Source: Hydractinia symbiolongicarpus
Lineage: Eukaryota
NCBI RefSeq assembly: GCF_029227915.1
Contig: NC_079879.1
Location: forward strand, 12,196,720 to 12,260,719
DNA: 64,000 nucleotides
Reading direction: 5' to 3'
Shown: positions 11,101 to 60,533 of the stretch, piece by piece
Layout: every line of letters begins with the position of its first letter
Position numbering within the stretch: position 1 is the first letter of the stretch
Translations under genes and position numbers: made by a program
Notes under the pieces: generated by a model
Databases searched by the model: none
What the model saw: only the letters and a program-made list of their open reading frames with translations
Told to the model about the DNA's origin: nothing

Positions 11101-11132
11101 GTACCCTTGATTTTTTTGTACTTTTATTAAGG

Positions 11133-21239: not shown

Positions 21240-22165
21240 TTACATAGAAACATCATTCATCATCATTTTCAGCTTAACATATGTTCTTCATGCTCATATG
21301 GGTTGGACAGGTACATCAATGACATTCTGATCTAGACTGTATGAGCTATCTAGACTGTTTAAACCCAAATTTACCTACATCAAGTCTATCCTTTTTAACT
21401 CCTGGCAAATCTTTTTCATTCTACTTATGAGCTTATCCCAGGAAATGTCTTTAGATTATTCAGTTATCGTACTTTTCCAAGTGCCTCAACCTTCTTCCCT
21501 CGATAACCTCTCTAACACTACGAATACTTGCTCCTTATCTCATCTGAACTCTCTGTCTTCCAGACTGGTGTTACATAGCCATGTAATTATTCTTATAATA
21601 CCACGTTATAAACAGCCAAGATCTTCCTTCTTCATTGCCCATGTCTTACTATCACACATCATAAATAACCTACCTGTCACCTCAACGGACACGACTCTTA
21701 TGGTTAACAAAAAAAGTAACTCTCTGAACTTGGTCTAAGCAGAACCTATTCTGCAAGTAACACTTTTATTAAAACCCTTTCACTAACCAACATATTACCT
21801 AAGTAACAGAAATTCTTAATCATCTCCAACAAGTCACTGTTGCACATCCTCACAGCTGAAAATTCTCTTTTGTCTCTAATCTCACCCTTGCAACGGTTAC
21901 ATACAAACTGAATGTGAGCAACCCCTTTTCTCCAAACTCCACAAGAGCACTTTCCAATCACAAGTTCAAACTTAGCTTCAATGCTTCCAATCATGTCTTT
22001 AGACTTTTCTGCGTTCACTTTCAAGCCTTTCTCTTCTAGTTTGCTTCCACTGCTTAAAATTTTCCACAAATTCTTCCATAGTCTTAACTTTGCATCTAAA
22101 AACTTCAATGAAAACCCCCTCATAAACTTCATTGACAGCGCTTTTAAGACAACACAAAACAACAA
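21240..22165 (-). mobile_element. Non-LTR retrotransposon (LINE) 3' fragment: RT C-terminal end plus Cys-rich tail (..GLKVNAEKSK..CSCG..C..C..NFCYLGNMLV..) and 3' region
   Basis: The minus-strand ORF 21746-22165 carries the LINE RT terminal 'GLKVNxxKTK' motif followed by a 'FCYLGxML' block. The downstream ~350 bp (21240-21600) recurs at 28140-28500 and 63880-63960. Confidence 0.45.
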
Positions 22166-24008
22166 TGGACTAAGTACAGATGTACGCCAACATTTATGCT
22201 AAAATCATCACTAAGTGAATTGTAAGTTCTGACACGAATTCTAATTTTACTGTACATAGACTGTACCATAATTTTCTCTATGTGACCCAGGAAATTTTTC
22301 GAAATCTACAAAGACATGCTTTCTCTTTCCTTAATACTTATACTTAAGTTTTCTTAGTAAGTATAATACAGCTGTAGTTTTGCGCCCTGGAAAAAATTCA
22401 AATTTCATCCTATCTATATCAATTCTTTTACTTAGTAACCTCTCAATCAGTCTTTTAATATATTTTATTACTTTATAACCAACTTCAACCCTCTGTAGTT
22501 ACCAATGTTTTCGGCATTACCCTGCCCTTGAAATAACTTACTATTACACTTGACTGCTAGTCACTCAGAATAACACTATCCCTATCTCATTGGCAAAACT
22601 TGTAATAAACTCAACTCCAGTATATCAAAACACTTTTACAATCTTCGCAACAATACCTGCAGCCTTGCCAATTTTTATTTTCCCAATTGCCCCACCTACC
22701 TGTTCTGTTATGTCCTGGCCTGCATAGTCATGCAATTATGCTCATTTCACTTAAATTCTTTGTCAAGTGAACTTTGTACGAACCAAGAGAATATCATCAT
22801 TACTTATACACTTGTCACCTACAACATTAATCTACATTTGCTTGCTATGTTAAAACGTCTTTACCAAGCGCTTTTGGTTAGAAACTTCAAGTTCTATCCT
22901 GCGTTTTATCACTATTAAGGTTATGGGTTGTAGGTATTTATACAAAATAATTTTTATTAATCTTAATAATCAATTCAGTTTTTTTCATTATAAAGTTTAT
23001 TCATTATTCGTTTTGTGAGCACCCTAGTTTTCAATTGAGGAAAAAAAACTTTCTCTAAGTTTAATTGCACCCTACTAAATTGATTTTTTTGTTTATTCAG
23101 GTATTTAAATATGCTGGCTTGCATTTTAGTAAAACTTTTCACGCTTTTTTTAATTGATAGGCAACTGCAAATATGAGTTAAACTTTCACATTTGAGGGTG
23201 TATTCTCTATCTTTGTGCAACAAATCCAGAAAAACTAATGATCCAATTCTGAAAAAGTTGGTTATGAATGCATAGATGGATTGAGTAAGGTCAATTTATA
23301 GGCCCTCACTTGTGCCAAGTAGATCTAAAAATGCATTTTTTTGTCTCTCAGTAAATTTGATGTTATTTATCAATACAGTGCCATAGCGAAAACGTTGCAT
23401 TCATAAAGGTAGATTAGAAAAAAAGCTAGTTAACTGATCACTTTACAACCAAGAGACTGCTGGTGAAATTTGTCAGCATTCTTTTATAATATCTATCTTT
23501 TGACTCCTAGCTAATTGACTGTGATAAACTTCTTGAAATATTAATACAATGAAAAAGAACATAGACGTTTCGGATTAAAAGGTGGCTGAAATTTTGAATT
23601 AATATTGTAAAGTAGTTCACATTACATAAAAAAAAAGTAAATTTTACCAAGGCCTAGACAATGCTTAGTGATAGTTTTACTAAGAATTTGTAACTGCATA
23701 AGATATGATGCTGCTTATTATTTTTAGGAGGATTAGTAAATTTAATTTTTATATACTTACGTTCACGCAGTCAGGTTTTGCATTGCCAAAACTTAAATAG
23801 TAGAAGATATTTAATTCTCCAAAATTATATACTCAATATTCCTACATCTTTTTTGCATTGTATCTCAAAGATCATCCTGATTTTTGATTAAGTTGACTCA
23901 CAGGTCATTATATGAGTATTTAACGGTCATAGCACCATTGTTTATAAATTACTTCATAATTGTCTAATTAGAAAACAGAAGTAAACAGTGAACTAAGGAA
24001 TGCGTTAC

Positions 24009-24203: not shown

Positions 24204-26289
24204 CTAAAATAAAAATTTTTAAACTTCTGATCCATTTGAAACTGCCTTCCAAGTCACACTTTCTAAATAACTGATAGCATAGATGTGATTCATTACAGAG
24301 GGATAGATGTCTAAAAGGATATTTGTAACAAGCAACAAAATTACCAAATCATTGAGAGATGACTTTAACAAAATTACCAAATCATTGAGGGATTACTTTA
24401 ACAATATTACCACTTATCAGTTCAGTTACAGTCATTGTTTCGAATGTGATTGAAATCATTTTTGGCTATTTATTGGTCGAGGAGATAATTAGAGGATCGA
24501 AGTGCAAAAATGATATTTTTAGAAGTTGATAGGAAATAGTATTGATAAAGGTTTCTCTATTTATAGTATGTATAGTTTCTTTCACTCTTCCTGCTATCCC
24601 ACAGAACTTCTGTGATATTTTTATTGTCGAAGTCAATAATATGATAATTCTGTAGTTGTCAAAACGTAGCCTAGTATAAATTTTCTTTTTTATTATAATA
24701 ACTATATTATTCGAAGATATGTGGTAATATTTGTAAAGTTATTAAACAGCAATATGGTTGATGTGAGATTGTTAATAAAAACTAGATTAAAAATTGTAAG
24801 ATATTCCACATTACAAAGTCAAACCGGGGAGAAGTCAGAAAATACTACTTGGTGCAAGTCCCCAATTGTTGCATAAGCAGATTCATCTTATATTCATGTG
24901 ATGAGAAATAATATATTGATTAAGATGACTGGAATTGACCAGAATAAAAATACAATACTGTCAGGTATATTATAATAATTTATTAAACACAACATTCTTA
25001 TGTATGTTGTCATGGCAACAATGGGGCGCCACTTTTAGACCTTAAAAATCTTGAAAATGATAAAAAATATAAAAAATTACACAGCTTATATTGAATTTGT
25101 AATGAAAAATTGAAGCTGAAATTTGTTTACGTACATATCTTCTATACCATAATTTGGTACAAAATAAGGTAAACTGCTAAAAATAATTGTGCAGAACTCT
25201 AAAGCAGGGTTTACTGGATTTAAATAAAAGTTGATGCTAATATCAGCCGCAAAAATCTAAAAAATCTTAAGACAAAGCCACATTTTTGTCAAACTACCTA
25301 AATTACAAATTATGCGACGTTGTCCTTGATATTCTTTAGTGCTGAAACTTGTGAGAACTACATCTGAACTCTGCACAGTTGGAAGCTAGGGAATCATGAC
25401 TGGGAACTGAGAACAATGCAAGGAAATAACATCAGTAGTGCAAGTAAAAGAAGAGGAAGTTTTTACTAATTTTTCAATTGGATTTTGAGGCACCCTACAA
25501 TAAAAATTAAATATGATGTCTGATGCTGGGGAATGGTCTCATCTAGATAATATTTATTTTGAGATTTTAAGCCATCTAGTAACATGCCAGCACTGCAGAG
25601 GCACGTTTGTTTTTAGTGGCTATATACATTTTGCTATCTACAAGTAGCTATATACATTTTTTATGTAGCTAGCTAGCTAGCTACCTACCAGGGTTTACAA
25701 AGAAATTCTGTCATTTTAAATAAGGAATTTTGATATTTTCTGTTACTACCTTTCTATGACAGTAAACAGTCAAGACTTAAGTTTAAGCTATATAAGGTAA
25801 ACTGTGTCATACGTATGGTGAGTATGTGTCACATATGCAGTGGAGCGTTTACAGCATAACATCTTTTTGAAAACTAACATTCGCAGCAGTTATGATGAAA
25901 CCTATTTTTACTTTGGAAAAGCAAATACAGTTGTTTAGCATTTTATTTGCAGAATACGTTTTTGTGGATGTATAAAAAATAATTGTGAGTGGAACTAGGT
26001 TAAGCTATTAGTACAGATAAACTAAGATGCAGATTCGGGTGGATACAAAAAAAAACTCTCTGAAAACTGTGAAGATTTGGCACTGTGCTGTCCAAATTCC
26101 TATTTTCTCTGTGCTACCTAAACTTAGGGCATTTAATGTTTTCTGCACAGGTCTAAAATTACTGACGACAGAAAATGTCAAAATTTTATTCTTCATTTAT
26201 GACATCATAATTTATGCAGCATTAAAATGTGAATATCTTGGAAACGAAAATAGCTTAATCTTATGTTAACGTTATGTTTGTCCTACTTA

Positions 26290-28139: not shown

Positions 28140-28500
28140 TATTTATTTACATCATAATCATCATCATCATTCTCGGCTTAACGTCCGTTTTCCATGCTAG
28201 CATGGGTTGGATGGGGTATATTAAAGACCCTCTTCCAATCTGATCTAGACTGTGTTAGATCTAAACTCAACTTCCTCTGTATAAGTCTGTCCTTATAACC
28301 TCCTTCCAAGTCTTTCTCGGTCTGCCTCTGGGCTTTGCCCCAGGAACTATCACGTCTCTACACTTTTTTACCCAATTATCCCCCTCCATTCTTTCAAAGT
28401 GCCCCAGCCAATTCAATCTTCTTATCTGGATAACATCTTTAATTCTATGGATACTTAGCCTGCTTCTTAGCTCATCTGAACTCTTTCTGTCTCTCTTACA
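28140..28500 (-). mobile_element. 5'-truncated LINE 3' end, same family as 21240-21600, lying in the PARP4-like 3' flank or intron
   Basis: Collinear match 'catcatcatcattctcggcttaacgtccgttttccatgctagcatgggttgga...' vs 21240 'catcattcatcatcattttcagcttaacatatgttcttcatgctcatatgggttgga...'. An (ATG)n-like tail sits at the minus-strand 3' end. Confidence 0.45.
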
Positions 28501-28566
28501 AATAGAGAAAAATTATTTCAATTTTTTACACAAAATAAAATTTTAATCTGACCTCCACCTTATCCA

Positions 28567-33400: not shown

Positions 33401-36400
33401 TCAGTCAAACAGACGTGTGACTCAAAGCCTTTGACAATAAAGTTTTACTTTAACCTTTTATATTTTAAATATTTTAAATAAATTGTAATTATTTTTAATG
33501 AATAAATATATTTATATATAAAAAAATAGAGCCCCATAAAATTATTAAAGTACCTTTTATTAGATATTAAAAACATACTTGTTTGTTTGAATCAGTAGGA
33601 TGACGTTGAGCAATCATTCGAGGGACATGAATTTCAGCAAGATCGATTAACAATTGAAATGAGTCACCAAGTGCTTTATCCATAAGATGAACAACAGATT
33701 TTGTAGCAGTTTTCTAAAAAAGTAAATAATGTTCTACTTAAAAAATAAAGTAAATGAAGAAGCCACATATTTTTTACCAAAATATTACTTACCTTAATTT
33801 TTACTGAATGTGTGGGCGAGAAAATTTTTCTGATCTCATACGGCATATCCACGGATAACTGCAGTGAGAATTCTCTAAATCACATTTTGAAGTGCAAACA
33901 TGTAGTGAGTAAATAAAGTTGACAATGCTTGTTAATAAAATGTGTATACAAATATACATCACTGACACACCTTTTTTAACTTGCATTGTTGTTTAAGAAA
34001 GGGAATGGTGTAAAGCAGTTCTTAATACAGTACTTAATTAAAAGGAGTGCTCATTAAAACTACTTTCTATTGTAGACATTAGAAAAGGACACGTACTTAA
34101 GGGCATTCTAGCTGAAGAATGGGGTGATATAGGGGGGTTTATTTGATAAATTCACAATAATAAAAAATTAATGTGTGATACCCCAGTGCTTTATCGTCAT
34201 CAACATTAACTGTAGCAACATCATCCTAAAAAAATAGGTATAAATAGGATTGTTGGTCTCTTTTGAGGTACAAATAAAACCCAATACATATGTCACCAAA
34301 ATCTTACTTGAATTTGAGTAGCCAAAGCAGTTTTCTTGGTCCATGGTGCAACACATCTAGGCAGCACGAAACTAATTTGTTCTCCTTCTAACTGAAGTTC
34401 TGCTACGTATGTAATTTTTATTAAGACGTCAGCATGCGGTGGGAGATTCCCAACACTTACAGTGAAAACATCCTGCAGAGACCAATCATAAAATAATGTT
34501 TTTTCTTTTAAAAATATAGTACGAGATTCTGATCTTAGATTCATTTTGACTAAATAGGTAACTTAATACCGTATTGTTACATAATACAACAAAAAATGGT
34601 AAAAATCCTGATAAATATCTTACAGCCTGTTCTTCTTGTTCTTCCATAAGATAAGCACCATGACCTTTGCTGATGGCTTCCTTGTATTCTTTTCGTGCTT
34701 GTTCTTTTTCTTTTACGTGACCGATTATGTGTTTACCATTAATAAACGCTTCAAAACCACACACTACAGGATAAAACAATAAGTTAAAACATCCATTAAT
34801 TAATACGCAAATAAAAACACTGTTTTAATTATTATTTTTTAAAATTGGAAAATTTTTTAAAACAATTTTTTTAATTACACATACCTGCTGCCATACTGTC
34901 TAAAGGAAACACATATTTCGCTTCGATAGCTACGGTACTTTCATTGGTGTAAGCTTGAAGAACCACAACCTTCAAGAATGATATTGGTTTCATAATATGT
35001 TAACAAAAAATAAATGTTAATGCAGCAAAGTCTGAAGTCATAATTAGTAGCATTGAAGCTAAGTGTAACCTTGTAATGTATAAGTGGCCTTGTGAAGTGT
35101 GCAGGAAAGGGGTTGGTAGTAACTCAATTTTTTGTCAGACTTGTAAGCATTGGGTACATAGAAGTGCAGTAGTAGAGAAAGGTTAGCAGTTGACATTCAG
35201 TTTATATGCAAACATTGCAAAGGTGAGATTATAGAAAAAGTCGTATTTTCAGCTTTAATAGTGTACAACGGTGGCTCATTGTTATGCTTCTGTTATTTAG
35301 ATGGTATGTTCCCTAAGTAGATAGGTAGTGAAGGGGGTGTTATAAGAAGTGTTATTTGCTGGACAGATTTTGCTTTGAAATAATGTGATTTTGTTACAAC
35401 AAAAATTTCCTTTGTAGATAATATTTCATACCTCAGAAGCTAAGTCTTGTAACTTTGCTCTAACATGAACTGCAGTCAGAGGTATTTTTGAATCACCTGT
35501 ACTTTGCAAACCAGCAGCAACTTTGTTTAAAGGATTCTCAACATTTTGAACATCATCCAAATTGAAATCTATTATATAATCTATATTATAATACCCGTAT
35601 ACGTCTGTCTGTCACGCAAAATGGTACCGCAAGCAGTGAGACGCACACAATGCAGTATAAAAAAACGGGCTAACCCTTGGATTTTTCCATGGGCCATAGA
35701 CTAGTATGTAAAGTTTCTGTTGAAACAACATAACAGGTCTGTATTGATTGTTTACAGTTAGATGTTTCACTACCCTTTCTGGATTTCTTCCAATATGACC
35801 TTTACCACCCAACACATCATAAAAACTAAAAAAACTTTGTTGTCTCTAATCTTATCTTTGCAACACACAGCTGTTGGCAACTCTTAACCTTCCGCAATAC
35901 CTAGTGGTAGTGTTATCAATGAGAATCTTGCAAAGGGGGGTCTAGAGCATTTAAAGCTTCCATTTGAGCTACAGAAGGTGTGTAAGTACAACAACCACTC
36001 TGCTATACCACTGCCCAAGATATCAATCTTATTCTCATGTTTATGTTTACGAGAACAGTGATTCACACTTTTATAATCTGTAGCATGACTCAGTCGAAAT
36101 TGAACTCACACCCTTTTGCACTGGAGGAGGCAATCAGTCGGCAAAGAGTCAGACGAAAAATTGAGTTGTTACCAATCACTTTCCTGCAAACTCCATATGG
36201 CTGCAGTCCAACTATAAGATCAAACTTTGCTTCAATGCTGCTAATCATGGCTTTAGAGACTCTGCTACATTCACTCTTAACCTTTTTCTTTTAAGCATTT
36301 CTTCTACTTCTCAAGCTTTTTAACTAATTCTGCCATTGATTCTGCTACGGAAACTAAATCATCTGCCTGCAATAAACTCAATGGATACTCTGTTCTGAAC

Positions 36401-39400
36401 TCCATCAACAAACCACAAAGGATTGATTACAGAACCCTGATTTACACCAACTGTTATTATGCTAAATTCATTCAGCACTGAAGTATTACACTTGTGGGAC
36501 AAAATGTGTTATGCAAACACAACCTGTTATCTAGTTTTTTGAATTCACAACTCTCTCAAGAGATTCCAATGAAGAACTTGAAGCATAGTCCCTCAAGGTA
36601 CATTCACATGAAGTATGGAATAAAACAGTCCATAAATTTAGTTTTAAAAACTTCTCCTAATAAACTACAAAACTGCAGCAAAGAACCTCAAAGGAGAGTG
36701 AAACCTTGGCAAACACTCCTTGGAAGAGATTAAATTATTAAGCAAAGGAGTAGGCAGAGAACAAAACTAATAGGCTGGATAATAAAAATAACACACTGCC
36801 TTTACACAAAATATTAGTTTTGGACATACATGATTTTCACATCGACAAATTCTTCTTATGCCTGTGCTGAACAGCCGAAGTTTAAATCTGACCCTGCTTT
36901 TTAACAAAATTTAATATGTTACTCGTATTATTCAACTATGGAATGTTTTAATACACCTGCCATAACTAGATAGCCACTAAAGCTAAACCGATTGGGGTTT
37001 TGTTTATCTTTTACACTAACTGATTAACTAAATGTGATACAAATGCAAATATATTTTGTTAAAAGGGCAATGACAGATAGAATTGGTGCATAAAACTAGC
37101 ATAAACAAATTATATCAACCACTGTTTATTATTTACCTTCTTCTGACTGTTCCATGTCCGATTCGATACCTTCATCTTCAGATAGTTCAGGATTAAACTT
37201 ATGTACAAGAAGGGTGTCTTTTGGCGTTTTAAATTCAACAATATGCCTAAAGTAAAAATTAATACATTTTAACAGTAGATTTACATAGGTGGTGTATGCA
37301 TTAAATTTAAAAATATAACACTTACGTAACTTGCAGCCTTGAAACATCATAAATACAATATTCATCATCCTGTATAACAAAAAAAGGTTGCACTGATATT
37401 CTTAAACTTCAGAGAATTTAGTAACTAAGGGATGTTTATTGGTTTTGATTATGTACTATGACACATAAAAAGTGAGGTCAACTCCTTAAAACAGGCCTTT
37501 GTTTTTACAGTAAAGGATTAAAACTAGTTAGTTTTTTGCCCCATTGCCTGGTCTGTAAAATAATCGCTCTATGTGAAGTTGTAATAAAGCATAGTTTTGT
37601 TAATTTTTTTTGAAGAAGTATTGACATTGAAATGAAAGTATTGATAAATTTTTCAGTCAGTACAGGCAGATAACTTTTTATATTTTTAAACTTCTCTACG
37701 TATGAATAGTTAAGTTGAAAATTAATGTCTCTATTATAATAGCCGTATTCCGTCTGTCTGTCTCTGCGCGGAACCCCCGCTGAGTTAGAAAATTATGTTA
37801 CGGAAACACGAATATCAAATGCGATATATTTTTATTGACTTTGTTTTGACCGCTCGCGCGTGGAACACCATTCACAACGCCTGATTCTTTAAAAAAAAAC
37901 CAAGATTTTCGCGACCAGAAAGAATCCAAGATCTTCGCGGAACGAAGGCCATTTTGATAATGGTCGTGTTTGTGGTCAGTGTGTGAGGTTTGTAGGCCTG
38001 TTTGACTTTTTTATCTTCTAAAAGCCTTATATATTTGTAATATTTGTTTTCTGTTTGTTTTCAATGTTAGGATAAATATATTGTCACGTTTTTTAGCCAC
38101 GTACAGATCTAAACGCACCAGTTTTAGGATGTTTGGCTAGGAACGAAGATTAGCTAGCTATAGCTACTAGCTAGCTAGAGCCCCACTTATTGCTATTATG
38201 TATGGTATAAGAGCTTTTTATCCTAGCCAACATTTATTTTTATGTTGAGGCTGTGGCTATTTAGCTAGCTCCTTAAAAAGTGAAAGTATAAAAATGCAGT
38301 TTGGCTACAACAATATTCTTAAGCAATATATAATTTTTATGCTAAATGCAGTTAGCTAGCTAGGTATAGCTACATATTTTATAATTTTTCTGCAAACTTT
38401 TTCTGCAAATGAAATGGCTGAGCGATTGTTTTGGCTGGACGAGTAACGACAGGCTGTTCCCTGTGTTTTTATTTAAACCGAAGTTGCAATGAACATTTTT
38501 GGAAAAGGGTAATACGCCTTATGCGCCTGTTCAATTGTGTTTAACTGTACTAAGCGGTTAGCCCAGTGTTAAAAACAGACTGTTTTTTGTAAAAGGCTGT
38601 TACGCCTATGGGCATGTGCAACACCGTTTACCTGTATATACTAAGGTCAGCCCACCACTGTGACAATTAATTTTTAAACTTTCTTGGGAATCACGCCTGG
38701 ACTAACCGCTCAGCCCTGTGTCTGCGAGAAAGTTTTTTTCAAAAGGGTATTATTCCTATACGCTGTGCAACACGGTTTAACTGTACTAAGCGCTCAGCCC
38801 AGTGTCACGATTAATTTTTTAACTTGCTCAAAAAGTTATTCTGCAAAATGAAATAAAATTGACGATTGTTTTTGCTATGATGGAGTAACAACACTTTGTA
38901 AACTCTGTTTTTATATCAGTTATCGTTGCGGGAAAGTTATTTTTTGAAAAATATGTTACAGTCGCACACTATAATGGTGTATGCGCTTCAAAAGATTAAC
39001 GACATACTGTATACCTGTACTAAAGCGCTCCACCTGATCGTGTGGGACAGTTTACGGCTCTTATTAAGCGCTCCACAGAGTGTTCAATGCCGGATCACAC
39101 CTTTACTTGTGGCTTAACCCAGCGTTTCGACGCCGGGTTTCCCGGCTATCTCTTTAATAATAGCCGTATTCCGTCTGTCTGTCTCTGCGCAACATGGCGG
39201 AGCAAGTAGCGAGACCCGTCGAAAATCCCCGCGGCCCTGCAGCTTTACTTCGAATCCCCGGCAGACCCCGTTGTTTTACCGGCCTTGCTTTGCCGCTCAT
39301 TGTAATAAACCAATCACGAGGCTCTATTTTCACTAATGACCAATCCAAGTGCTTCGCGGCCTCAACATGCCGACAGGAGGAAACATGCTACCCCTACGAA

Positions 39401-42400
39401 GGCCATTTTGGTTTGGAAGTGATGGTGTGAAGTTTGTAGGTTTCCTTTCAATCCTCCTTATTTCTTCTGAGTACTTTTTATCCTATAGGATTGTTTAGTT
39501 TGTTTTCACATGTTAAGGTGAATATTTCATCACGTTTTCTAGCTACGTATAAATCTTAAACAAACCAATTTTAAGTTTTTGGCTAGCTACAAAACGTACA
39601 TTTTGAGGCAGCTAGCTAAAGCTATCTTTATTTATTCCTATTCTTTTAAAGTTTTTATTCAGTTTGGTATATTATTATTTATTTTTATGTTGAAGTTGGG
39701 TCTACCTAGCTAGCTCCTCTTTTAGCTACATCCTGCTAAAAAGTGAAAGTAGCCAAATGCAGTTTGGCTGCAACACAATTTATAACAATTCTTATGCTAA
39801 ATGCAGTTGGCAGCGGCCACTTTTATTACTGATTTAAAAATTTAGTATGCAAAATAAAATTGCTGAGTAATTTTTTAAACTAAACCGGGTTAATGCCAGG
39901 CTGTTCACTGATTTCTTTTAAAACCGAAGCGATAAGGATTTTTGGAAAATGGTATTACCCCTATGCTCATGTATGACACGATTCACCTGTTAAGCGCTCA
40001 GCCTGGTGTTAACGACTGGCTGTTTCCTGTGTTTTTATTTGAACCGTTGTGATAAATTTTATTTGGAAAATTTTATTACGCCTGTTACTCATGTATGACA
40101 CAATTTACATGTTAAGTGTTCAGCCTGGTGTTAATGACGGGCTTTTTTTCGTGTTTTTATTTAATCCGTTGTGATAAAGTTTTTTTACCTGCAATAAACA
40201 TTCAACCTGGTGTTAACAACAGGGTGTTTTGTGTTTTTTTTATTTAAATTGAAGTTGCGATAAGTTTTTTTGGGAAAAGGCTATTATGGCTATAACGCAT
40301 GTGTGACACCATTTACATGTACTAAGTGCTCAGTCCGGTGTCATGATTAATTTGTTAAGGTTTACTGAAACGTACTCCACAAAATAAAATAATATTGACT
40401 ATTTTCTTTTCTTATGACTGGGTAACAACAGGTTGTAAACTGTGTTTTTATTTCGGTTAAAGTTGCAGTAAAGTTATATATATACATATATTTTAAAAAG
40501 TACATTACAACCGAAACACTATAATGTTGTGTGAGCTTTACTCAATTCACGACATATTCTGCATACCTGTACTAGAGCACTCCAAGGAGTTTTTTTAGTT
40601 TTTTTATGGGGTAACGACTGGATTTTTCCTGTGTTTTAAGTTAAACCGAAATTGCAGTAAAGTTTTTTATGAAAAGGGTATTATGCGTTCTCGGCCCACT
40701 GTCATGATTAAGTTTTGAACTTTTACGGCAACTTATTCCGCAAAATAAAATAATATTGCCCGATTGTTTTTGCTATGGCGGAGTAACAACGGTTTGTAAA
40801 CTGTTTTAATTCAGCTTTTGTTGCGGGAAATTTTTTTTTTTAAATATCTTACAGTCGCAACACTGCAATGGTGTGTGCCCTCCACTTGATTTACGACATA
40901 CTGCATACCCGTACTAAAGCGCTCCACCTCACCGGGTCGCACAGTTTGCGGTTCTTATTAAGCGCTCCTCAAGGCGTTCAACAACAGTTACTTATGGCTT
41001 AACCCGGCGTTTCCACGCCGGGTCTCCCGGCTATCTTTAATAATAGCCGTATTCCGTCTGTCTGTCTCTGCGCGGACCCCCGCTGAGTTAGAAAATGATG
41101 TTACGGAAACACGAATATCAAATGCGATATATCTTTATCCACTTTGTTGCGACGGGTAAAGTTGAAGGACGGGCGACCCCGTGGATTTTTCCACGGGCTA
41201 ACGGCTTATATATATAATAATCAAATCAAAAATTTAAACTTAAATCCATTCAAAATGATCAGAATGCAAATGAACAAAAATGACATGGCACATAGATTTT
41301 TCAACTTTTCTATGTTTTCAAATAAAGCTGTACTCTTTTTTCTTGATCTTCGCAACAAAATACAATTTCGAAACTTATTCAAGATGTCTTGGAGCCTTTA
41401 GGTGGTTGCCCTAGTAATATTTAAAATACTAAAATATGTTTTCGTACAATATCTTTAACATAGAATTATCCCAGCCTCTTCACTAGAAGAAACATGACAA
41501 GGTATTTCTATTTACATTGCATACACAACCGTTCATATACAAGATGGTTTAATTCTATTTTATGTGTGCTTTTATTCCTTTGCTTTAAAAAACTTTCAAT
41601 ATCCCTAACGCATATGTTATGAAGATTTCTGATCAAAAACTTGGAGTGACAACTTCAACAATGGTTACTTCTAAATATAACCTTTAAATATATATATATA
41701 TATATAGAAAAGGTGTATTTAGAAATACACCATGCAATAAAAAAACATACCTTGAATTCTGAAGGCACTTTACTTGTACTTTTAACACCATGTGTGCTGT
41801 CAAAACCATTTGGAGGACCAACTAAACTCTGATTAAACTTAAAATAATCCTAAAGTAAATAAAAAAACCTAGTACCTCATGAGAAGACTTTGTGCCAAAT
41901 TACATTTTTTTAATCCATCCATAATTTTAGATAGTTGCAATTCGTGAACATTTATAGATTCTAAGTATAACCTCCTAATGAATGCTTATTAGATTGTAAA
42001 AATATATTTTTTTAAAAACCATCCAAGTTCAAAAATTAATACTGATGGAATATTGAAATTGCAAATTCTAATTACCTCAAAATACAATTTTAGAGCAAAA
42101 CACTAAACAAACTATTTTACCTTAGTTTTTCCTAATGATAATTGACATGCTAACATGAATCGGCTACCAGTTAGTGAAGATGGCTTTGAATATTTTATGC
42201 AAGTTCTATAAATTACAAAGACTTTTTTTTTTGCTTGTTTTAGAAGGTTGGTAGTATTTAATGGAGACATTAAAGGATTATGATAGGTTATAAAGTTAAA
42301 AAAGTCCTTAGTATATGACAACTTTCTTGCTGCTAGGGGCCTGTTTATTTTTATTTGAAGAAACCTTGAAAAACATCTGCATCAAAGGTAATCTGGTATA

Positions 42401-49697: not shown

Positions 49698-52600
49698 CGG
49701 CCCCTCTGACTAAATAGGATTCCTGGCCGTTAATATTGATGAAACTTGCTCTTTATATGTTATCCACCACAACACAGTAGTGCCTGTGTAGTGAAAGTGA
49801 CGTGGGTAGCTAAAGTAATTTTATTACTACTTTTTCCTCTTGAAAATTTAATCTTTTAGGATTGCATGCGAAAATTGTTGTCTAATAGCTAGCTATCTAA
49901 ATAAACATTTTGCTAAGCAAACAAGATGCATGATTAAACATGATTTCTTTTCTAACGTTCAGTCCTAGCAGAAGATTTTTCCTTCTTAAAGTACACCCAC
50001 TTCGTTTTATAAAAAGTTAGCTGTGCCTTCGTAAAAAAATTATTAAAAATCAGCCCGGCCTTCGCTTCCTGATTCCTCCCGTTTCGTTTTCGTTTTTTTG
50101 TTTTGAACTGGCCACCCGAAGTCAGGCGATTGTGAAATCGCCCCATGCTCACTATAAAAAAATATCGTTGACTTACGGTTGGGCGGTGAAGAATATTTTT
50201 TACTCCAAAAGGCTCTGGCTCCCCTTCTTTTTTTCAATATACCTTTTACACTCCAGATTTACGCAGTAAAATGATTGCCAATAAAATAGCGATGAAAAAG
50301 CTACAATGTTTAAATCAAATCATTAAGGGCAGAAATTTCTGCCCGGTAAGAAATTCAACCTGAAATTCGCGAAATTTATTTTCGCGAAAAATCAATTTTT
50401 TTAAAAAATTGCGAAAGTTTTTTCCAAGTTTTAAAAGCCGAAAACTCTTTAATAACGAGGGCTCTCCGAGAGGGACATGGGTAAAAATAATAGAAACACA
50501 ACAACAAAAATCAGTCCGAAAAATGGCTTTTTAAAACTCAATCTCTCGTTCCCAGGGCATTTTGCCTTGTTGATGAAGTTGATAGCGTTGGCCACTCCGT
50601 AATAACGACTCAGATGGGACACAAAACCCTGGGGACGAGGTTGTTTAAAACTCTAAACTTTAATAATGGCTTCAAAGCCCGACTCAATGTTTGAAGGCAG
50701 CTAAATATCGAAAAACAGAAGGGTTTGAATATCTTCGTATCAGAAATTTCAAGACAAAAACGAAGAGAAGAGTGAGACAATAATTTGGTGATTTTTTTCT
50801 TATTTGATTGATTCATTGTCATTCGCGAAAGTTTGTGTTCCCGAAAATGAAGATTTTGGAAAATTCGCGACAGTTTTTTCTGTAAAATTTCTTCCAGAAG
50901 CAGAATTCGCACAAATTAACTTCGCGAAATTTTGCAAAAAATTCTACCCGTATTAAAATTAAATAACTTATCTTCTTGCGAAAAAGTTTGGCGGGTGGGG
51001 AGTGGAGTATCTCTACGCAGTTTCAGCCCCAGGGGACTTTATTACATTCTTTCCTTCAAAAACCTGGTAACCAGTTAGGAGAAAGTCACCGATTTTTTGG
51101 AGAGCGAACTGATAGCATTTTAAACTGTTGTTGTCTACACGCTTAGGGCATCATATGGTTAGAGTGCTTGTGATTTCTGCGATTACTGACTCAAGTATAC
51201 ATACAATTATAAATCATCCATGAATTAACACAAATCTAGCTATGTAAGCATATATGCAGTTTGGCTATTGACAACATATTTTACATGATCAAAATGGGAA
51301 CGCTGTTCTCTCGGGCAAAAAAAAACGTTTACAGCGTTGATTTTTATTGATATTTCATCTATTTTGGTTACGCAGTTGGGTTTTAATAGAGAAAAATAAA
51401 ATACGTTCCAAAGACAATTTCGCACTCGCCGTTAGCGTTTACCAGTTCTTGAATCACCACACACGACAAGTATAGTTCCCGCCCTTTGGGCGCTTTGTGA
51501 GCAAACCCTTCTAACCATATACGGAGCAATGCTTTCGCCCGACTTTGTCGGAAACAATATCGTCTGAAGGTCATTGCGTGAGTACCTAAAATGGCTGTAT
51601 TTTGTTGATGGAGAGTGCGATTGATTTGATGTGATTGATCAACCCAACCCAGTGTTAGCATACTTTTCTTATTTGATTTTTGGAAGTCCACCAGTTAGAG
51701 AATGGGTAAGGATTAAAACTCTTTCCTAATTTTATTTCAGAACACCCAAAACGAATTCGCTTGCATAATAAAGAGAGACATTCTCTTTTCAACATTTATA
51801 GATGAAAAAGGTATCGAATAAAAAACATTAACTCGTTATCTATACCTTTACATAGCTGTACCAATCAGCCTAAAAAGTCCCAGTAAAGGATGTTGATAAA
51901 TTGCAATGAAAAATCCAAGGCGGAATTGTCTAATGCAACTGCAAACACATAGTTTTGGGGTCCAAAAGCATTTAAGATTGCTGTTTAGGTATATCTTTGT
52001 GCTGGTCTTCTTGCATTTTTTTATCACCTTTATGTCCAGCTCACTAAAAGGTACAAAACTAGGGACAGTTAGGTCGCTGTAGCAGGCATATAGCTACAGT
52101 TTTAGGCTCAACCTACCTACAAAACAGGGATACTGTGTTTACAGACATCAATCATATCCCTGAACCAGGGATATTGGGATTTTTGCTCTTGTTGGCACAT
52201 GTGCTTCTTAATAACAGATCTTTGTTTTACTTTTGTACCAGCTAAAGTACCTTCACAGATCTACAGACCGCTATCAGGAAGCCTAACATTGTGATTGTGT
52301 TTAATGCTTCACACCCACAATCCACGACCTTATCATGTCAGTGATTATAAACATATTATATAGCAGATCGTCGACCTATTGTAAAGATCATCCTCATCGT
52401 GATTCTGAGTTGTTTAGATTTTTGAAGGCGTATTGTGTGTTGTTTTTTTTTGTTAGAAAAACAAAAAAATCAAACTGGTAAAAAAAATAAAAAACAATTA
52501 CGCAAAAATAAAAAAAAATGCACAATAATTATTACGCAAAGAGCTGCTAGTAAGTCTTTTTAGAGCAAGATGTAATAAAATGAAAGAAAAAAAAACATTA

Positions 52601-55600
52601 TAGAGTTCGATCATGTTTCTTATAAAAAAATGCGAAATGCCATAAGCTAGAATATTATATGCAAAAAATAAGAATTAAAATCATACCAATAAAAAAATAA
52701 TGCATACCTGATACTTCGTCACAAAACTTGTTCCTTGGATATATGCCTGGATTGCAATTTTTGCTGTCCCTTTTATCGTAGAACAATTTTGTATATCCTT
52801 TTTAAATTTGACACAGATCTTACACCACACAAAATTTTGCGCCGTTTTTTTTTTTTTTTTTCAATGGTTTTATAGCCAATTACATCTGACACGTTATAAT
52901 TTAAAAAGGCTTTTAAGGCCAAACAATTTCCCTTTTCAGTTGCCATCTCTCCACGCTACTTGCAATTCTGTACTCTAAAGAAATTTATTTCTGGTTCTTT
53001 TTCTTTTGAAAGAAGTTTTACCGTTTTTACCTTTTTATTCAAAAAAATGATCAATGGGTTTACCTGTTCATTCAAAAAGTGATCAATAAGTTTTCCCTAT
53101 TTACTTTCGAACACGCAAATTTTTTTCTTCTTTAATATTCTAGACATTGCTTGACCTTATTTAAAAGAAAAATTTTGCAGTCTCGCATTTTTTTTCTTTG
53201 TTCTTTCCGCAGTGTGATTTCTAAGAATGGTTACTCGCTACAGTTTTATTTAGGAGCGTGATTGTTCACGCACCTAAGAAATGAATTGATATTTTAGGCG
53301 ACTTATTTTTCCTTTGTCTAACACATTTTAGGAGCGTGCCAAGGTGCGCGCGCGCGATCACGCACCTAATATGACGCAGCCTGCTCCCCAGTCATAGTAT
53401 GTTCAAAAAAAAACCTTGACCAATAGGGTTAACAGTATTTTAAGGTTTTAATAGCCATCCTTTAACAATAATTAACAATAACAATAGAATATTTTTTTAA
53501 GTAATGATTTTCATGATCAATCGCTAGTGTTGTTACCGTATTTTCTGGTATTTAACCCACAGGTTATAAGTTGATTTTTATGACTTCCACTGTGGGTGCG
53601 GGTTATAATGTGGTGCAGGTTATGTGATAAGTTTTATATTTTCTGTCATTTATTGTGAAATTTAAAGTTTTACATTCAATGAAGAAAATAGTACAAGTGG
53701 GATAAAATGGTAGATTAATATAAATGCATGCGCAATCCTATATCTACGTAATTTTACTTCAACTAGGTGATTTAATTACGAGCTCTTTAAACACAATTCT
53801 GGAGATCATTTTTCTTTTGTGTTGAATGTAATTCTAATCTATATATATCTTTGCAATCACATTGAGCACATTAAAATGATTTGCTTCTGGTAATAGAGCA
53901 ATATGGCAGGTATCATTTTTAGGTTTAATTGACACTTATTTCACAACCTAGTGCCCAGGACTTAATTATTAATTCCTGTTAAAAATATTAAATAATGTTA
54001 AAATTAAAGTATAGATAATAATTTTCTTTTTTTATCTTCGCTACCTTTGAGCATCAGGTGGCCACTGAAAATATCAAAAATAAATATAAAATACAATTGA
54101 TAAGACACACGCAACTATCTCCTGCTCATTGCCGCCATTTATTTTATCATGCACACTGTGATTGCTGAGATATAAAAGAAAACACTTGAAATTAAAAAAA
54201 AATCTAAAGAAGTTGATTTTAACATTTTTCATTAATTTTAAAAAGTTTTTTATTTTTATTTTACTTTATCTATATATCTACTATATCTTCTATATGCAAC
54301 TGTATCAGAAGAGATGCTATAGTTAAACTTGTGGATATAATTTTGTTATTAATAACATTTTTAATAATTATAATTGCCTTTCTTGGTTGACTTTTGTACT
54401 CACAAATTAAAAAATATCACTTCGGATTATCATATGCAAAGTTAGCAAAATTAATGTTTAATCCTGGGATGAGCAATCTCATCCAGTAACTTGATTATAA
54501 GGCATTTTTTAAAACAACTTTGCAAAAATGTTTGTGAATAAGGCGGGTGTTTGCGCAGGGTCAAGCAAAAAAGAATCATCCTAGTTTCGTGACTATGTCC
54601 TAATTCTGTGATTATGTCTAAATTTTGTGATGTTGTTTTTCTAATTATGAGATCCACTGGGATTATTTCTAAAACCAAATTAGGATTAAAATGGTTGCAA
54701 TAATTGTGGACATGTCTCAGATGTATCTAGTGGATGCTTTAAACATGCCAATGTGTCTTGTTCTATTGCTTAAACTTGGTGAAGCAAATTAACAAAGAGT
54801 ATCTGTGGAAGAGAGCACACTGACAAATTTTTTTTTAAAAAATATTCTCCAGCCTGTCTAGCTTCATAATAATATAGTTTTTTTAGTATTTTATAAATGA
54901 TTTCAAAGATAACAATAATGTCATACCCCAATTCATTAGTGAGCTACCACAGTAATGTTTAGGCTGTTTGTTCTGTAAAATGCACAAGTTTTTAGTACCA
55001 GCGAAATAAGTAATACGGTAGTTCGTAGATGTAAGGCTTAATATATGTCAGATTTTTGTAATATTGCACATGAGACGGCATCTGTATCGGTAAAGTGATC
55101 TTCAAATTACAACAAAAGTTCAAATTCAGGATGAAATTTGCAACCCAAAATAAGAAGCATATCTACGAATTTTGTGTTATTGTATGTTTTCATTTTATTT
55201 ATTTGTTATATGGTACGAACGAAACTTGAGGACTGGCTCTAAAAAACATTTTAAGAATGCTAATTTGCATGTGTTTGAAAATTTATAAGTGAAAATCCCA
55301 CTTTAAAAAAAGTAATCAATTGGTGTTATTATAAAAATATTCTGTCATATATGTTTTCAGGGTGTATTTCCGAAATGCAAATTGAGGGCCACTAATTTCC
55401 AAATAGGAATTTCATTAAGGTGGTTTTTAGTATTATTAAAATTTGATTATGGAAGCCAAAGTAATAATAATAATAAAGTAATAGCTTTGTTACCAACCAT
55501 GGGCATTTTTTTGCTATTTTGATGCTCTGGAGACAAGGTTTGCTCTTCTCGTAGTGTAAGTGTAGAAATTGTATACCGTCAGCATAAATCAGCATGACCA

Positions 55601-56993
55601 TGTGAAAATAAAACACAAAGGACAAACACAAGGTAAAGCATCTGGTCAAAGCTATGTCATGGTTGGAGTGTATTTTTACAAAATTTATGTAACCTGGCAT
55701 AGGTGACACATAAAACAAAATAAAAAATTAATACACAGTACTGTAAAATCTTAACATCAACGATCACGTATCGTATAACATACCAACACCCAAGACAAAA
55801 GAAAAAAAATGCTCTCCAGGATTGTGTTGTTCAGGGAGTGTGAAAATATATTTCACCGTGCAAAAAAGAACTGAAATAAAAAAATTACATATTTTTCAAT
55901 ATTGATTATGAAGGATAAATTAAACTTTTAGCTTCAATTTTTTGGTCCATGTGATAAAAACATTCACTTGAAAGTAAATGTTACATAAATAGCTGATATC
56001 TAGACTCTTCATAAAAACAGATAATGCTAAGATGTGCAAATAGCTTTACATTGCAGCAAGTGATCACGGATTATGTGATTGGCATGTGCAGTTAGAATAT
56101 ACGCGACAAATGCCTGCGCAATACATTTTTTTTTCCTATGAGGTTTTAGACACAATGAGATGCGAAGAAGTTAAATAAAATCCCATGTAGGCAATTTTTT
56201 GCTTAGATTGGAAGGTTGTAATGATGCTGATGGCAATAAATAATTTTGTGATGTGAATAATTTGTGTTTGCTTCATAGACTTGCGCTACAAAAATGTTTA
56301 ATTTTATTCACGCAGGAATTTTTAATCGATTTTTTAATATTTAGTCAATCCCAGGACAAAAAACATTGAGTTTTCTGGACCATATTAACTTTTGTAGTGA
56401 TTTTGTTAGGAAAATTTTGTTACATTTCGGTATATCACTGCCTTAAATCAACTAGTGGTCAAAATACAATTAGATGATACAGTAACAAGGCACATGCAAC
56501 CATCAGGGGCTAATACAGGTCGATAAAGATACTGTTATACTGATTTTGGGGACATTCAATATGTGCATCTTAAATAGGGAGATGGAAACTGTGTTAGTTT
56601 TTGTAATGATTGATAGGGAAAAATATGTTGGAAAAGATTCTAGATCTGTTTTATAGAAAAAAACCAGCCAACCTAAACAAAGATTTTCTAGTGGAAATGT
56701 TTTTTTAAGAAATATTTTCAACATTACTATTGCAGTAGTAAGAATTTCCATACCTATGTGAAGTTCTCTTTTCATTATGAAAAAAACATTACAATGGTAT
56801 TATAAATCTTTCATGCAAAGTTTGATGAGAAACGAGCAGACTAAGTACTGTGTGCTGTTTTTTTATACCTATAAAACGACATTCAGCAGTTAAATATGTT
56901 TTGTTTAAACTTGGACCTCCACAAAGTTTTTTAAGAAAGCAGACAAACCTTTTCTCTCATCATACTAATTCAGTTCAATCTTCTTTTTTTCAG

Positions 56994-57440
56994 CCACAGT
57001 GAAAGTTCTGTTTGAGTATGAAGCAGAGCAGGAAGACGAATTAAATTTAAAAGTAGGAGATATTGTGAAAAATGTTGATGTTCAAGATGGTGGCTGGTGG
57101 GAAGGTGAGATCGGCGGCAAACGTGGAGTGTTTCCTGAAAATTTTGTTGAACTTATCAAGCCAGATGAAAATAAAGCACCACCACCTACTGCTGCTACTG
57201 CTGCTGAAAGTAAAAAACAAGCCAAAGTTACTTTTCAATATGAACCAGAACAGGATGATGAATTAGCACTTGAAGTAGGAGAAATAGTTGAAGTTTTAGA
57301 AGATGATGATGAGGGTTGGTGGAAGGGAAGTTTAAATGGAAAGATTGGAATGTTTCCTTCAAACTTTGTCGAAAGGATAAAAACTAGTGTTGTCAAAGAA
57401 GAACAAAAGCCTCCTTTACCAGAAGCCACTGAAGAAGCAG
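56994..57440 (+). CDS. CD2AP/CIN85-family adaptor, exon carrying SH3 domains 1 and 2
   Basis: Acceptor is tttttttcag|CCACAGTG at 56992-93; the exon starts in phase 1, so an upstream ATG exon was not found. Two SH3 domains are present: ..VKVLFEYEAEQEDELNLKVGDIVKNV..GGWWEGEIGGKRGVFPENFVELI and AKVTFQYEPEQDDELALEVGEIVEVLE..EGWWKGSLNGKIGMFPSNFVERI. The donor is GAAGCAG|gtatgt. Confidence 0.8.
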
Positions 57441-58346
57441 GTATGTTCAGATGTTCTTCATGGTTTAATGTTTTTGTTTTTTAATCAACATAATTTACAA
57501 AGTAATTAACCCCTCTTGCATTTCCTGACAGCTATAATATGCTCTTTTGAGATAAGTCATACATATAGTTGTTTCATTCAATATAGTGGTGTCCACATAT
57601 TAATAATACATTAATATAAATTTGTGTATAATTAATAAGGAATTCACTGTTGCCTGCTCATTGATTTTTTTTTTCAGAGAAGTTTATAATATTTTTTAAA
57701 GTATTCTTTTAAAAAAAACATGGTATGGTTAGTAGCATTTGTTTAAGCTGTATAAATTATTAGATTTGCAGTGCGACTGTTTTTTTATTAAAATGTATTT
57801 GCTTATGTCACTAAGAAAGATTTTCGCAGATTTTTTAATTTCGTAAAAATAACTAAACTTCAACTAACTTTCAAGTGGAACTTGCAGTTTGAATTTCCTT
57901 GATTTTTTTTGAAAGGGGATTTTTTTATATTTGCAAATTCGAAGTGTTAATCAAAATATAATGTAGAAATGAAAATGAAAAATATTTCTCTGGTAAAAGG
58001 CAAAATAGTTCTGGTAAGTTAATGGTTAAAATATAATTGTTAAAGCAAGTAAAGAATTAAAATAAAAAAAAATTCACACTTCTATTTTATTTTTCATGTT
58101 TTACAGAAATAATATGATTTGTAACTATTATTTTGGCAAAACCAGCTGATATACTTAATATTGTGGATTTTCTACCTTTATTAAGGTTCTCTTTTTTGTT
58201 TAATCATTTTAATCTAGCAACCAGCTGATAATTCAAAATATTAGCCTGTATTGCTCTTGCTCAATGTTTTGTCTCAGTATACAGCTGTAAACCTGATGCT
58301 TTCTTAATATCTAATATTATATAATTTTTATTTTCATTTTCTTAAG

Positions 58347-58829: not shown

Positions 58830-58992
58830 GTAAGTTCTATAACCGTGACAATATATGGTACATTGTTTCAGCTTAGTCAAAAGCCGTTAGGTTCAGGTAC
58901 AAAGAGAAAAAAAGTCAGCACCTCCTGTCTTTAGATGGGGAGTAACTTACTCAAATTTTTTATCGCATTCGCATTGAATCTTTTTTTTATAG

Positions 58993-59324
58993 CACAACCA
59001 ACAACCAAGCCTGTTCAAAAAGCTAAAGTCACATTTGCATATGACCCAGAACAAGAAGATGAATTAAAGCTTAACATAGGTGATGTAGTGATAGTAACAA
59101 ACAAAAACGTTTTTGAGGGATGGATGGAAGGTGTATTAAATGGAAAAAAGGGTTTATTTCCTGATAATTTTGTCGAAATGTTACCTATGGAGCACGTCAA
59201 AACTGAGCCTGATTTACCAGCACCGCATAATATAAATGGACAAAAGTCTGTTAAACGAGCTGCTAAGCAAGACCCTATTGCTGAACCTGAAAAGGTGGAT
59301 CATACAGAAAAGCTAAAGCATATG
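58993..59324 (+). CDS. CD2AP/CIN85-like exon carrying SH3 domain 3
   Basis: AKVTFAYDPEQEDELKLNIGDVVIVTNKNVFEGWMEGVLNGKKGLFPDNFVEM is an SH3 fold with the ALYDY-like, W and PxNF motifs. Acceptor is ttttttatag| and donor is CATATG|gtatgg. Confidence 0.75.
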
Positions 59325-60043
59325 GTATGGGATATCTTTTCTTCGTGTTTTGTTTTTGTAATGCGCAAGGAAATGGCAGGGTTTCTATACCCCCTCATAA
59401 CTCCTCAAATCTCATCAAATGTCCCCAATGGAAGTTAAGGTTTTCTACTCAAATCTCCTCAAAAATATTTGATTACTTTTTATATATGTTATTTTTTATA
59501 TTATTTGTTTCGAATCGCCAAAAATTGTGGTTGCTGTGGCCTGCAAACATTCCTTTTTTTGTTCTTAGTTATCTTTTGTAAGAAAATATTGAGATGCCAG
59601 TCTGTGTGTTTCTTCATTTTTACAAGTGCAAGTTTTTCTTTTCAAATCTCTTCAATTTTGTTAACCTCCTCAAAAATCACAAAAATCTCCTCAAAAGTCC
59701 TCAAATCTTCTTAAATTTTTTTTTGAAAAAAGAGTGGAAACCCCAAATAGATTTATCCTATGATGTATACGAGGTTAGTTGCGCACTACATAATAAATTT
59801 ACGATACGTTCGTCCACGTAAACATGTCGCCCTGCTATCTTGCTCATGACGGAAAAAGGGTACTTGGCCTTTATGAAATGAGCTTCTTGTTATACTTGTC
59901 TAGGATATTAGAGGCTGTGCATGTTATTTCGTATATTTTTTAGGCTGCATGTTGGGTGCACGCTTGTTACCGTGCAAACAATTCATAAAGCTCTGGTTCA
60001 AATGATATGATAATTAAATTCTTTTTTATATTTCCAACCATAG

Positions 60044-60083: not shown

Positions 60084-60167
60084 GTACTTTCATGCTACTT
60101 TTATTTTTCACCAGTTAATGATTTTCATAAATATTTATGTTTTTCTTATTATATTAAATTTATTTAG

Positions 60168-60533
60168 AATTAGAAAAAAAGATGTCACAACCACCCCCGG
60201 CATCAAAACCTCCACTTCCGGAAACAAAAAAGCCAGCCAGCAAAGGCCCTGCGCCACCACCTCCAGCCTCAAAAAAGCCGAAACCAGCCTTACCACAACA
60301 GCCGAAACCACCGAAACCACAAGTTCCTGCTGCTCCTAAAAAAGAGGAAATCCATCCTTCTTCTCCAACGAAACTATTAAGCGAAGCGCCAAGATCAGCT
60401 TCCATATCTGTGGGATCAGTCGGTAACAAGTACGGTCCTCATCCACGATCAAATTCTGAATCTTTCAAACGAAATAATCCTCCGGCTGCTGCTGCTGCTC
60501 CTACTAAGAATCAAAGTGGTGTAACACACCAAG
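60168..60533 (+). CDS. CD2AP/CIN85-like Pro-rich exon (ELEKKMSQPPPASKPPLPETKKPASKGPAPPPPASKKPKPALPQQPKPPKPQVPAAPKK...), carrying PxxP / PxxxPR-type SH3-ligand motifs
   Basis: Acceptor is tatttag| and donor is CACCAAG|gttcat. This is the typical CD2AP/CIN85 proline-rich middle region. Confidence 0.7.

Follow-up and report, generated by a model that had tools for sequence, protein, structure and literature searches.

The DNA analysed here, referred to as the window, is a 64-kb stretch of Hydractinia symbiolongicarpus contig NC_079879.1 (positions 12,196,720 to 12,260,719). It is eukaryotic in character with a G+C content of 32%, and all coordinates below are those of its plus strand. A PARP4-like gene was identified on the minus strand, where the exons follow the PARP4 domain order: BRCT at 46.7–47.7 kb, PARP regulatory at 44.0–44.4 kb, VIT at 34.3–35.6 kb, and VWA at 32.0–32.3 kb. 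An intron of ~4.4 kb (roughly 37256–41660) lies between a PARP-catalytic-type exon (~41.66–41.76 kb) and the exon at ~37.15–37.25 kb. Most of this intron is occupied by an array of ~3.5 kb, which runs antisense to the gene and consists of three adjoining units in a single orientation, strictly head-to-tail. An earlier note on this DNA had placed the array inside a PARP4-like intron, and the BRCT, PARP_reg, VIT, and VWA exons on the minus strand agreed with that placement. Together with two solo short copies elsewhere in the window, five copies were available for study. We consider that the array probably represents three non-autonomous, tandem-repeat-carrying elements of the Helitron superfamily (DINE-1/pearl/HINE-like), separate members of which were recently placed end to end.

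Anatomy of the three units

The 33-nt head of the units, TAATAGCCGTATTCCGTCTGTCTGTCTCTGCGC, has exactly three exact matches in the 64 kb, all on the plus strand (37737, 39158, and 41041), and none in shuffled sequences. These matches bore out the earlier description of three head-to-tail units sharing one head. Unit 1 (37728–39148, plus strand, 1421 bp) is a complete non-autonomous element composed of TCTCTATT, the head (37737–37769, with a (GTCT)3 microsatellite at 37752–37763), a variable spacer, an AGCT-rich region, central tandem repeats, and a right flank with a hairpin. Unit 2 (39149–41033, plus strand, 1885 bp) is likewise complete and belongs to another subfamily; the head is identical (39158–39190), the spacer at 39191–39400 is GC-rich and unrelated, the central repeats are more numerous, and the right flank shares ~80% identity with the one in unit 1. 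Unit 3 (41034–41208, plus strand) is a short element in which the head (41041–41073) and a unit-1-like left flank are combined with a 3′ hairpin of the type found in the solo copies; its 3′ limit is uncertain and perhaps extends to ~41251. When the head was relaxed to ATAATA[G/C]CCGTAT(N1-2)CGTCTGTCTGTC, five matches were obtained where none was expected by chance, all on the plus strand, the two additional ones being at 5922 and 35588. A (GTCT)3–4 microsatellite directly follows the head in all five copies.

All five copies also carry a 3′ hairpin. Those of unit 1 (39132–39146, plus strand; GCCGGGTTTCCCGGC) and unit 2 (41017–41031, plus strand; GCCGGGTCTCCCGGC) are the GC-rich palindrome GCCGGGT(T/C)TCCCGGC, located 11 nt and 9 nt upstream of the next TAATAG, respectively, just as the earlier note had reported for the end of each unit that precedes another head. 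The unit-2 hairpin overlaps an alternative 9-bp stem, ACCCGGCG/CGCCGGGT, and the folding energy of this unit end was −12.2 kcal/mol (z = −3.9); the head, on the other hand, folded no better than shuffled sequences (z = −0.96 and +0.30). Unit 3 has CCCGTGGATTTTTCCACGGG at 41178–41197, followed by AACGGCTTA, and the same type of hairpin, CCCGTGG..CCACGGG and its variants, is present in unit 3 and both solo copies. The palindrome or stem-loop is situated within ~8–35 bp of the 3′ terminus, the distance used to recognise HINEs. Units 1 and 2 end with GGCTA, 2 nt past the hairpin, and unit 3 ends with CTTA; none of these is CTRR.

The head is mirrored at the other end of the units. In unit 1, the right hairpin arm and the TAT that follows it spell CGGCTAT, which is the head core, ATAGCCG, in reverse complement; CGGCTAT occurs right after the hairpin in both units 1 and 2, and ACGGCT occurs at the end of unit 3. 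Furthermore, when the 19-nt head was searched for in reverse-complement orientation with up to 5 mismatches allowed, the 64 kb contained a single match, ~95 nt before the end of unit 1. This subterminal inverted copy of the head (39046–39064, plus strand), hereafter the 3′ subterminal inverted repeat (subTIR), matches at 15 of 19 positions, and its core TACGGCTcTTAT at 11 of 12.

Internal repeats of 120–250 bp make up the central part of the larger units. Those of unit 1 (approximately 38430–38830, plus strand) are ~90–150-bp monomers related to those of unit 2 (approximately 39890–40700, plus strand), where the periods are ~120 and ~250 bp and the copy number is higher. Stretches of AGCTAGCT also occur inside the units. 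The order of the modules, namely head, (GTCT)3–4, variable spacer, central repeats, and a right flank with inverted head and palindrome, corresponds to the DINE-1/pearl/HINE architecture. The open reading frames (ORFs) of the array showed no coding capacity with any homologue, and their 13 concatenated translations gave no match at E ≤ 10 in the Logan assembly of run SRR3722386, which derives from a close relative.

We compared the units with each other. Collinearity between units 1 and 2 extends over their full length, and both contain the internal subrepeats and (AGCT)n stretches, as the earlier note had stated, but their identity is only 63–81%. The head and ~9 nt upstream of it match at 42 of 44 positions. 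Similarity then falls to noise directly after the head, and the next ~200 nt are almost unalignable; the middle part is 60–75% identical and the last ~400 nt are ~80% identical. The same sharp end of all similarity after the head was observed when unit 2 was compared with both units 1 and 3. In contrast, unit 3 differs from unit 1 at only three positions across the first ~94 nt, and its 3′ end is of the other type. The spacer of unit 2 (39191–39400) is unrelated to units 1 and 3, and contains two CCAAT-box-like motifs (AACCAATCA and GACCAATCC) and a 78-aa ORF that starts with ATG and has no homologues; the spacer may be a piece of a host promoter that was captured. From these comparisons, units 1 and 2 appear to be full-length members of two subfamilies, and unit 3 a short derivative with the left flank of unit 1 and the 3′ end of the solo type. 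The sharp stop in similarity and the hybrid make-up of unit 3 fit modular shuffling of flanks and repeats as in Cg_HINE (PMC7492417). We also considered whether the head is better conserved between units 1 and 3 than the sequence around it, but the difference was weak (0/34 vs 9/85 differences, P = 0.04) and was not relied on.

The two internal junctions are nearly alike, GGCTATCT(CT)TTAATAATAG. The heads at both junctions have TTTAATAATA, and the left-most head and the solo heads have TATTATAATA. As TTTAATAATA is common to both junctions, it hints that they share an origin, and a composite or read-through product was therefore retained as the main rival explanation. The bases preceding all five heads are similar (TCT[CA]T[AT]T..), both where host DNA lies upstream and where another unit does. 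Either the element truly begins with these bases (TC...), or they form a favoured target of which the right flank is an imitation. In addition, TT precedes ATAATA in all five copies and may belong to the element rather than to a T-rich target.

Dispersed relatives and age at the site

Two solo short elements were identified outside the array. Solo A (5910–6043, plus strand) consists of TCTATTT..ATAATACCCGTATAC(GTCT)4, the hairpin, and CTAG, and solo B (35580–35704, plus strand), which is ~80% identical to solo A, extends from 5′-TC to CTAG-3′; both are flanked by A and T. The earlier note had described solo copies with the head of the array and a different hairpin ending in CTAG. The copies and their hairpin-plus-CTAG ends were present, but their heads proved to be related rather than the same (ATAATACCCGTATACGTCTGTCTGTC vs ATAATAGCCGTATTCCGTCTGTCTGTC). 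Both solo copies can be written as A|TC...hairpin-7 nt-CTAG|T, in agreement with the 5′-TC and CTRR termini inserted between A and T that the same note had suggested looking for. A precedes TC and T follows CTAG at both of them, and G stands to the left of the array; these are three sites, which is few for an AT-rich genome. No pair of terminal inverted repeats (TIRs) or target-site duplications (TSDs) was found around the solos or the array. A 7-bp duplication beside solo B (TATATAA/TATGTAA) was rejected, since solo A is without one (CTGGCCA vs TTTTACA). The 5′ end of solo B (35580) and the putative 3′ splice site of the first VIT exon (AG at 35569–35570, minus strand) are ~10 nt apart; the start of this exon was placed by homology (P0042) and is itself putative.

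Two decayed relics were also identified in the window. The one at 13504–13697 (plus strand) is an old, CpG-decayed relic of a short element of the unit-3/solo type; its hairpin is now CCTGTAAATTTTTCCACAGG, and the arms have changed from CCCGTGG..CCACGGG to CCTGTAA..CCACAGG. The other, at 25844–26050 on the minus strand, is an old decayed relic related by sequence similarity to the repeat and part of the right flank of unit 1. The relatives of the array in the window, two solos and two relics, are thus dispersed, one relic being on the minus strand.

The age of the units at this site was examined through their CpG content. The CpG observed/expected ratio (CpG o/e) was 1.05 in unit 1, 0.99 in unit 2, 1.6 in unit 3, and about 1.0 in the solos. 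The corresponding values were 0.42–0.56 in the intron on either side of the array, 0.3–0.5 in the gene body (14–48 kb), and 0.36–0.49 in the relics. Units 1 and 2 together contain 120 CpG, compared with 53 expected at the level of the gene body (P = 3e-15). The units are therefore young at the PARP4-like intron. As their CpG is undepleted and that of the relics is lost, the divergence of 20–37% predates arrival at the site, and the units represent distinct members of a family that is active or was so until recently.

CpG o/e in 2-kb bins forms a mosaic along the window. It is 0.28–0.58 in most of the PARP4-like gene region and the adjoining genes (14000–48000), 0.88–1.01 in the bins bearing the array, and about 0.8–1.1 in the outer window (1–12000, 50000–54000, and 62000–64000). 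This mosaic looks like germline gene-body methylation of the invertebrate type.

Other features of the window were recorded as follows. ORF fragments at 21749–22198, 28270–28512, and 36093–36290, all on the minus strand, are retroelement-like without a Pfam match; those at 21.9 kb and 36.1 kb both carry the motif SIEAKF(E/D)L(V/I)IG and are probably two copies of one family. Tandem repeats of 30–33 nt (66 nt), GGAGGTGGTGGTGGTGGAGGTAATCCAGCTCCA, are located at 14560–14908, 16147–16227, and 18232–18301, and appear to be Gly-rich coding repeats of another gene. Exons resembling CD2AP/SH3KBP1 with several SH3 domains were found on the plus strand at 56969–57481, 58935–59435, and 60158–60565. A 97% identical exon of this kind in the Logan assembly of SRR3722386 identified that run as being from a close relative of the source organism. 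Among named organisms, the best matches were only to an oyster (43%) and a rotifer (58%). In a distant relative, the SH3-protein gene (ENA ERZ25073822, ctg41390_533x_l, 1–8400) adjoins same-strand ORFs with DJR-like (double jelly-roll), DUF8207, and weak Rho_N similarity; these ORFs may belong to a virus-like element that has integrated.

Origin of the head-to-tail order

The assignment of the units to the Helitron superfamily is well supported by their structure. The earlier note had proposed Helitron-like elements, and at the superfamily level the 3′ hairpin, the 5′ head, the dispersed solos, the TC...CTAG termini, and the lack of a TIR/TSD pair were in line with this proposal; the internal junctions, which read GGCTA|TCT, were not. 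Features are split between Helitron1 and Helentron/Helitron2, so that the structural assignment is made at the superfamily level only. A tRNA-derived short interspersed element, a ribozyme, and a retrozyme were considered as other classes and rejected: an ARAGORN tRNA scan yielded nothing, and Rfam (E ≤ 1) yielded two chance-level matches only.

Several points weigh against the assignment or the recent placement. The link to a Helitron/Helentron transposase is drawn solely from structure, since a Pfam scan of 95 ORFs of at least 75 aa in the window detected no Helitron_like_N, PIF1, or any transposase, and thus no Rep/helicase ORF. The internal junctions are GGCTA|TCT rather than CTAG|TC, and the array is preceded by G in place of A. 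The termini and the target site are putative. The 3′ subTIR is clear in unit 1 only: its homologue in unit 2 has seven mismatches, and none of at least 8 bp was found in the solos or in unit 3. A 5′ hairpin or inverted repeat of 7–12 bp, as HINEs have and as Helitron2 would lead one to expect, was not found by the head, where the arms are only 4 bp (AATA-GCCG-TATT; ATAC-CC-GTAT). The high CpG content could reflect a local lack of methylation instead of youth. Finally, the evidence comes from only five copies in one 64-kb window.

As the elements encode nothing, their mobilisation would depend on a Rep/helicase (HUH-Y2) transposase, presumably supplied by an autonomous partner elsewhere in the genome. 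In such a scheme, the conserved head would serve as the recognition signal for the transposase, which would copy one strand, or displace it, as far as the 3′ hairpin terminator and integrate this strand at an A/T-rich site without a target-site duplication. Different members would have been inserted successively and recently, exactly at the end of a resident copy, whose boundary may serve as the recognition and nick site of an HUH-type transposase. Alternatively, a composite may have been built by such insertions elsewhere and then transposed here. In either case, the head-to-tail order would have arisen neither from duplication in situ nor from a single round of concatemer synthesis. Neighbouring units that are distinguishable from each other point to separate insertion events at one place.

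We tentatively suggest, as a possibility well short of the preferred reading, that the family targets its own ends, the boundary of an element being a preferred landing site at which members stack head-to-tail. Two observations are in favour of such targeting: the junction bases TCT[CT]TTA resemble those before the independent insertions, TCT[CA]TATT, and the 3′ ends of the units carry the inverted head core (CGGCTAT or ACGGCT) beside the hairpin.

An equally doubtful origin is a strict rolling-circle product, in which read-through of the hairpin in units 1 and 2 or repeated copying of a circle would have made or moved the three-unit block as one molecule. The strict head-to-tail order in one orientation and the two nearly identical internal junctions, with TTTAATAATA in both heads, are what such a process would give, and tandems of Helitrons attributed to rolling-circle replication have been documented (10.1101/2021.06.02.446622). 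However, the units did not come from one template, given their identity of 63–81%, the unrelated spacer of unit 2, and the other 3′ end of unit 3, and the undepleted CpG rules out a long divergence in situ. The rolling-circle concatemer considered possible in the earlier note, which would have near-identical units joined as CTAG|TC, was accordingly not supported: identity was 63–81%, the end of unit 3 was of another type, and the junctions read GGCTA|TCT. Read-through of a composite presupposes an earlier tandem of different members, and hence merely shifts the question.

The units are unlikely to be a cut-and-paste element resembling a miniature inverted-repeat transposable element (MITE), with short TIRs, internal repeats, and hairpins that are incidental. 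In this case, the TIRs would be the head core ATAGCCG(T) and its inverted counterpart (A)CGGCTAT, found at the very 3′ tips of units 1–3, the similar 7-nt flanks of solo B (TATATAA and TATGTAA) would represent a duplication, and a precedent would be the pearl/DTC84-type elements, which were first described as MITEs with an AA ‘TSD’ (PMC3879986). Yet the solos have neither a terminal inverted repeat nor a consistent duplication, the flanks of solo A being CTGGCCA and TTTTACA; the ORFs of the window include no transposase; and later work moved the pearl/DINE-1 group to the Helentrons (PMC4067079, PMC7492417).

Local tandem duplication, by which an incipient satellite or higher-order repeat would have diverged in place while gene conversion kept the head identical, accounts for the collinearity of units 1 and 2, the variation of unit length through internal repeat number, and the perfect identity of the 33-nt head amid diverged bodies, but it is the least probable origin because a CpG o/e of about 1.0 is incompatible with the time needed for 20–37% divergence in place within a CpG-depleted gene body, and because similarity drops sharply and modularly after the unit-2 head, the 3′ end of unit 3 is foreign, and relatives, both solos and relics, are found elsewhere on both strands. 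The alternative in the earlier note, an uncharacterised satellite, was likewise not supported: instead of a long, homogenised array built from one monomer without transposon ends, there are two full units and one short unit that are heterogeneous, and related solos and relics are dispersed on both strands of the window.

The reading of separate Helitron-superfamily members recently placed end to end is therefore preferred. In itself this is routine repeat annotation: an uncatalogued family of Helitron type has recently come to occupy, in antisense, 3.5 kb of a 4.4-kb intron in a conserved gene. It nevertheless provides a small, clean example of two known themes, the modular shuffling of ends and repeats and the occurrence of transposon copies in tandem, and transposable element copies in tandem are the first step proposed for the birth of satellite DNA. 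If targeting of element ends were true, transposition itself could turn dispersed elements of the Helitron type into heterogeneous arrays of long period, and unequal exchange could then convert these into satellite DNA. The importance would be greater if members genome-wide preferred to insert at each other's ends.

Comparison with known systems

The array is of a known repeat type, and the family itself was previously uncatalogued. An exact scan for the head (ATAATASCCGTAT N1-2 CGTCTGTCTGTC) gave 0 matches in metagenome, prokaryotic genome, and viral collections. A relaxed head pattern was found in at least 120 metagenome contigs, which are alike only in (GTCY)n and represent other HINE-like families; the ATAATAsCCGTAT head was in none of them. 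Among them, an independent HINE family was recognised in JGI metagenome contigs with unrelated insertion flanks (L011, L015, L022, L024, L042, L059, L062, L067, and others). Its members start with TTTTT, and the T-run is followed by AGCGAACGTGAAC-TCAC-GTTCACGTTCGCT, comprising a 13-bp subTIR and an inverted repeat, and by (GTCY)n.

A (GTCY)n microsatellite just inside the 5′ end is a hallmark of the left flanks of DINE-1, HINE, and Cg_HINE (PMC4067079, PMC7492417). The HINEs (Helentron-associated interspersed elements), including Cg_HINE/Helitron-N*_CGi of Crassostrea gigas, DINE-1 of Drosophila, and HINE-Mo of a mite (PMC7492417, PMC4067079), are non-coding, like the units described here. They share with these units the succession of 5′ end, (GTCY)n, variable spacer, ~120–180-bp central repeats, inverted copy of the 5′ end, and 3′ palindrome, as well as a length of 0.9–2.6 kb, modular shuffling, the absence of a target-site duplication, and occurrence in introns. 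The head here is more compact than in HINEs, the microsatellite starting ~25 nt from the end. HINEs have paired subTIRs of 11–15 bp, the 5′ one close to the terminus and the 3′ one ahead of the palindrome. The 3′ inverted copy is 38–60 nt from the end in mite HINEs, whereas in unit 1 the distance is ~95 nt; unit 2 has a degenerate form of this copy, and the short copies have none. HINEs have T-run ends, whereas the short copies here end with CTAG beside an A|T site, as do canonical Helitrons.

The pearl/DTC84 elements of bivalves (PMC3879986) were compared by layout only. They consist of a flank, core repeats, an ACGG/ACAG microsatellite, and a second flank, similar to our units, and this microsatellite is the same one in reverse complement (ACAG/ACGG). 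As in unit 1, one copy of an inverted motif stands at the terminus near the microsatellite, and the other copy is subterminal at the opposite end. The microsatellite of pearl/DTC84 abuts the core repeats, whereas here the two are separated by a spacer of ~0.6 kb that includes an (AGCT)n-rich region.

Canonical Helitrons have a 5′-TC terminus and a hairpin ~10 nt ahead of the 3′ end, which is CTRR, and are inserted between A and T (summarised in PMC3627910). The solos share TC, the hairpin, CTAG, and the A/T flanks with canonical Helitron1, for which head-to-tail arrays are also known, for example the Helitron-1_DPe tandems on the Y chromosome of Drosophila pseudoobscura, attributed to rolling-circle replication (10.1101/2021.06.02.446622). 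In contrast to canonical Helitron1, units 1 and 2 end with GGCTA and unit 3 with CTTA, not CTRR, and the left flank of the array is G. Moreover, the units here are different members, not repeated copies of one element as in the Helitron-1_DPe tandems.

Tandems of transposable elements are known to arise through recombination, rolling-circle concatemers, or double insertion (PMC5932611). In the double-insertion tandems described by McGurk and Barbash (2018, PMC5932611), neighbours are distinguishable by distinct truncations, which indicates separate insertions at one site, and the neighbouring units here are likewise distinguishable. The two systems differ at the junction, where the double-insertion tandems keep the target-site duplication, whereas Helitron-type elements make none and the junction here is unmarked.

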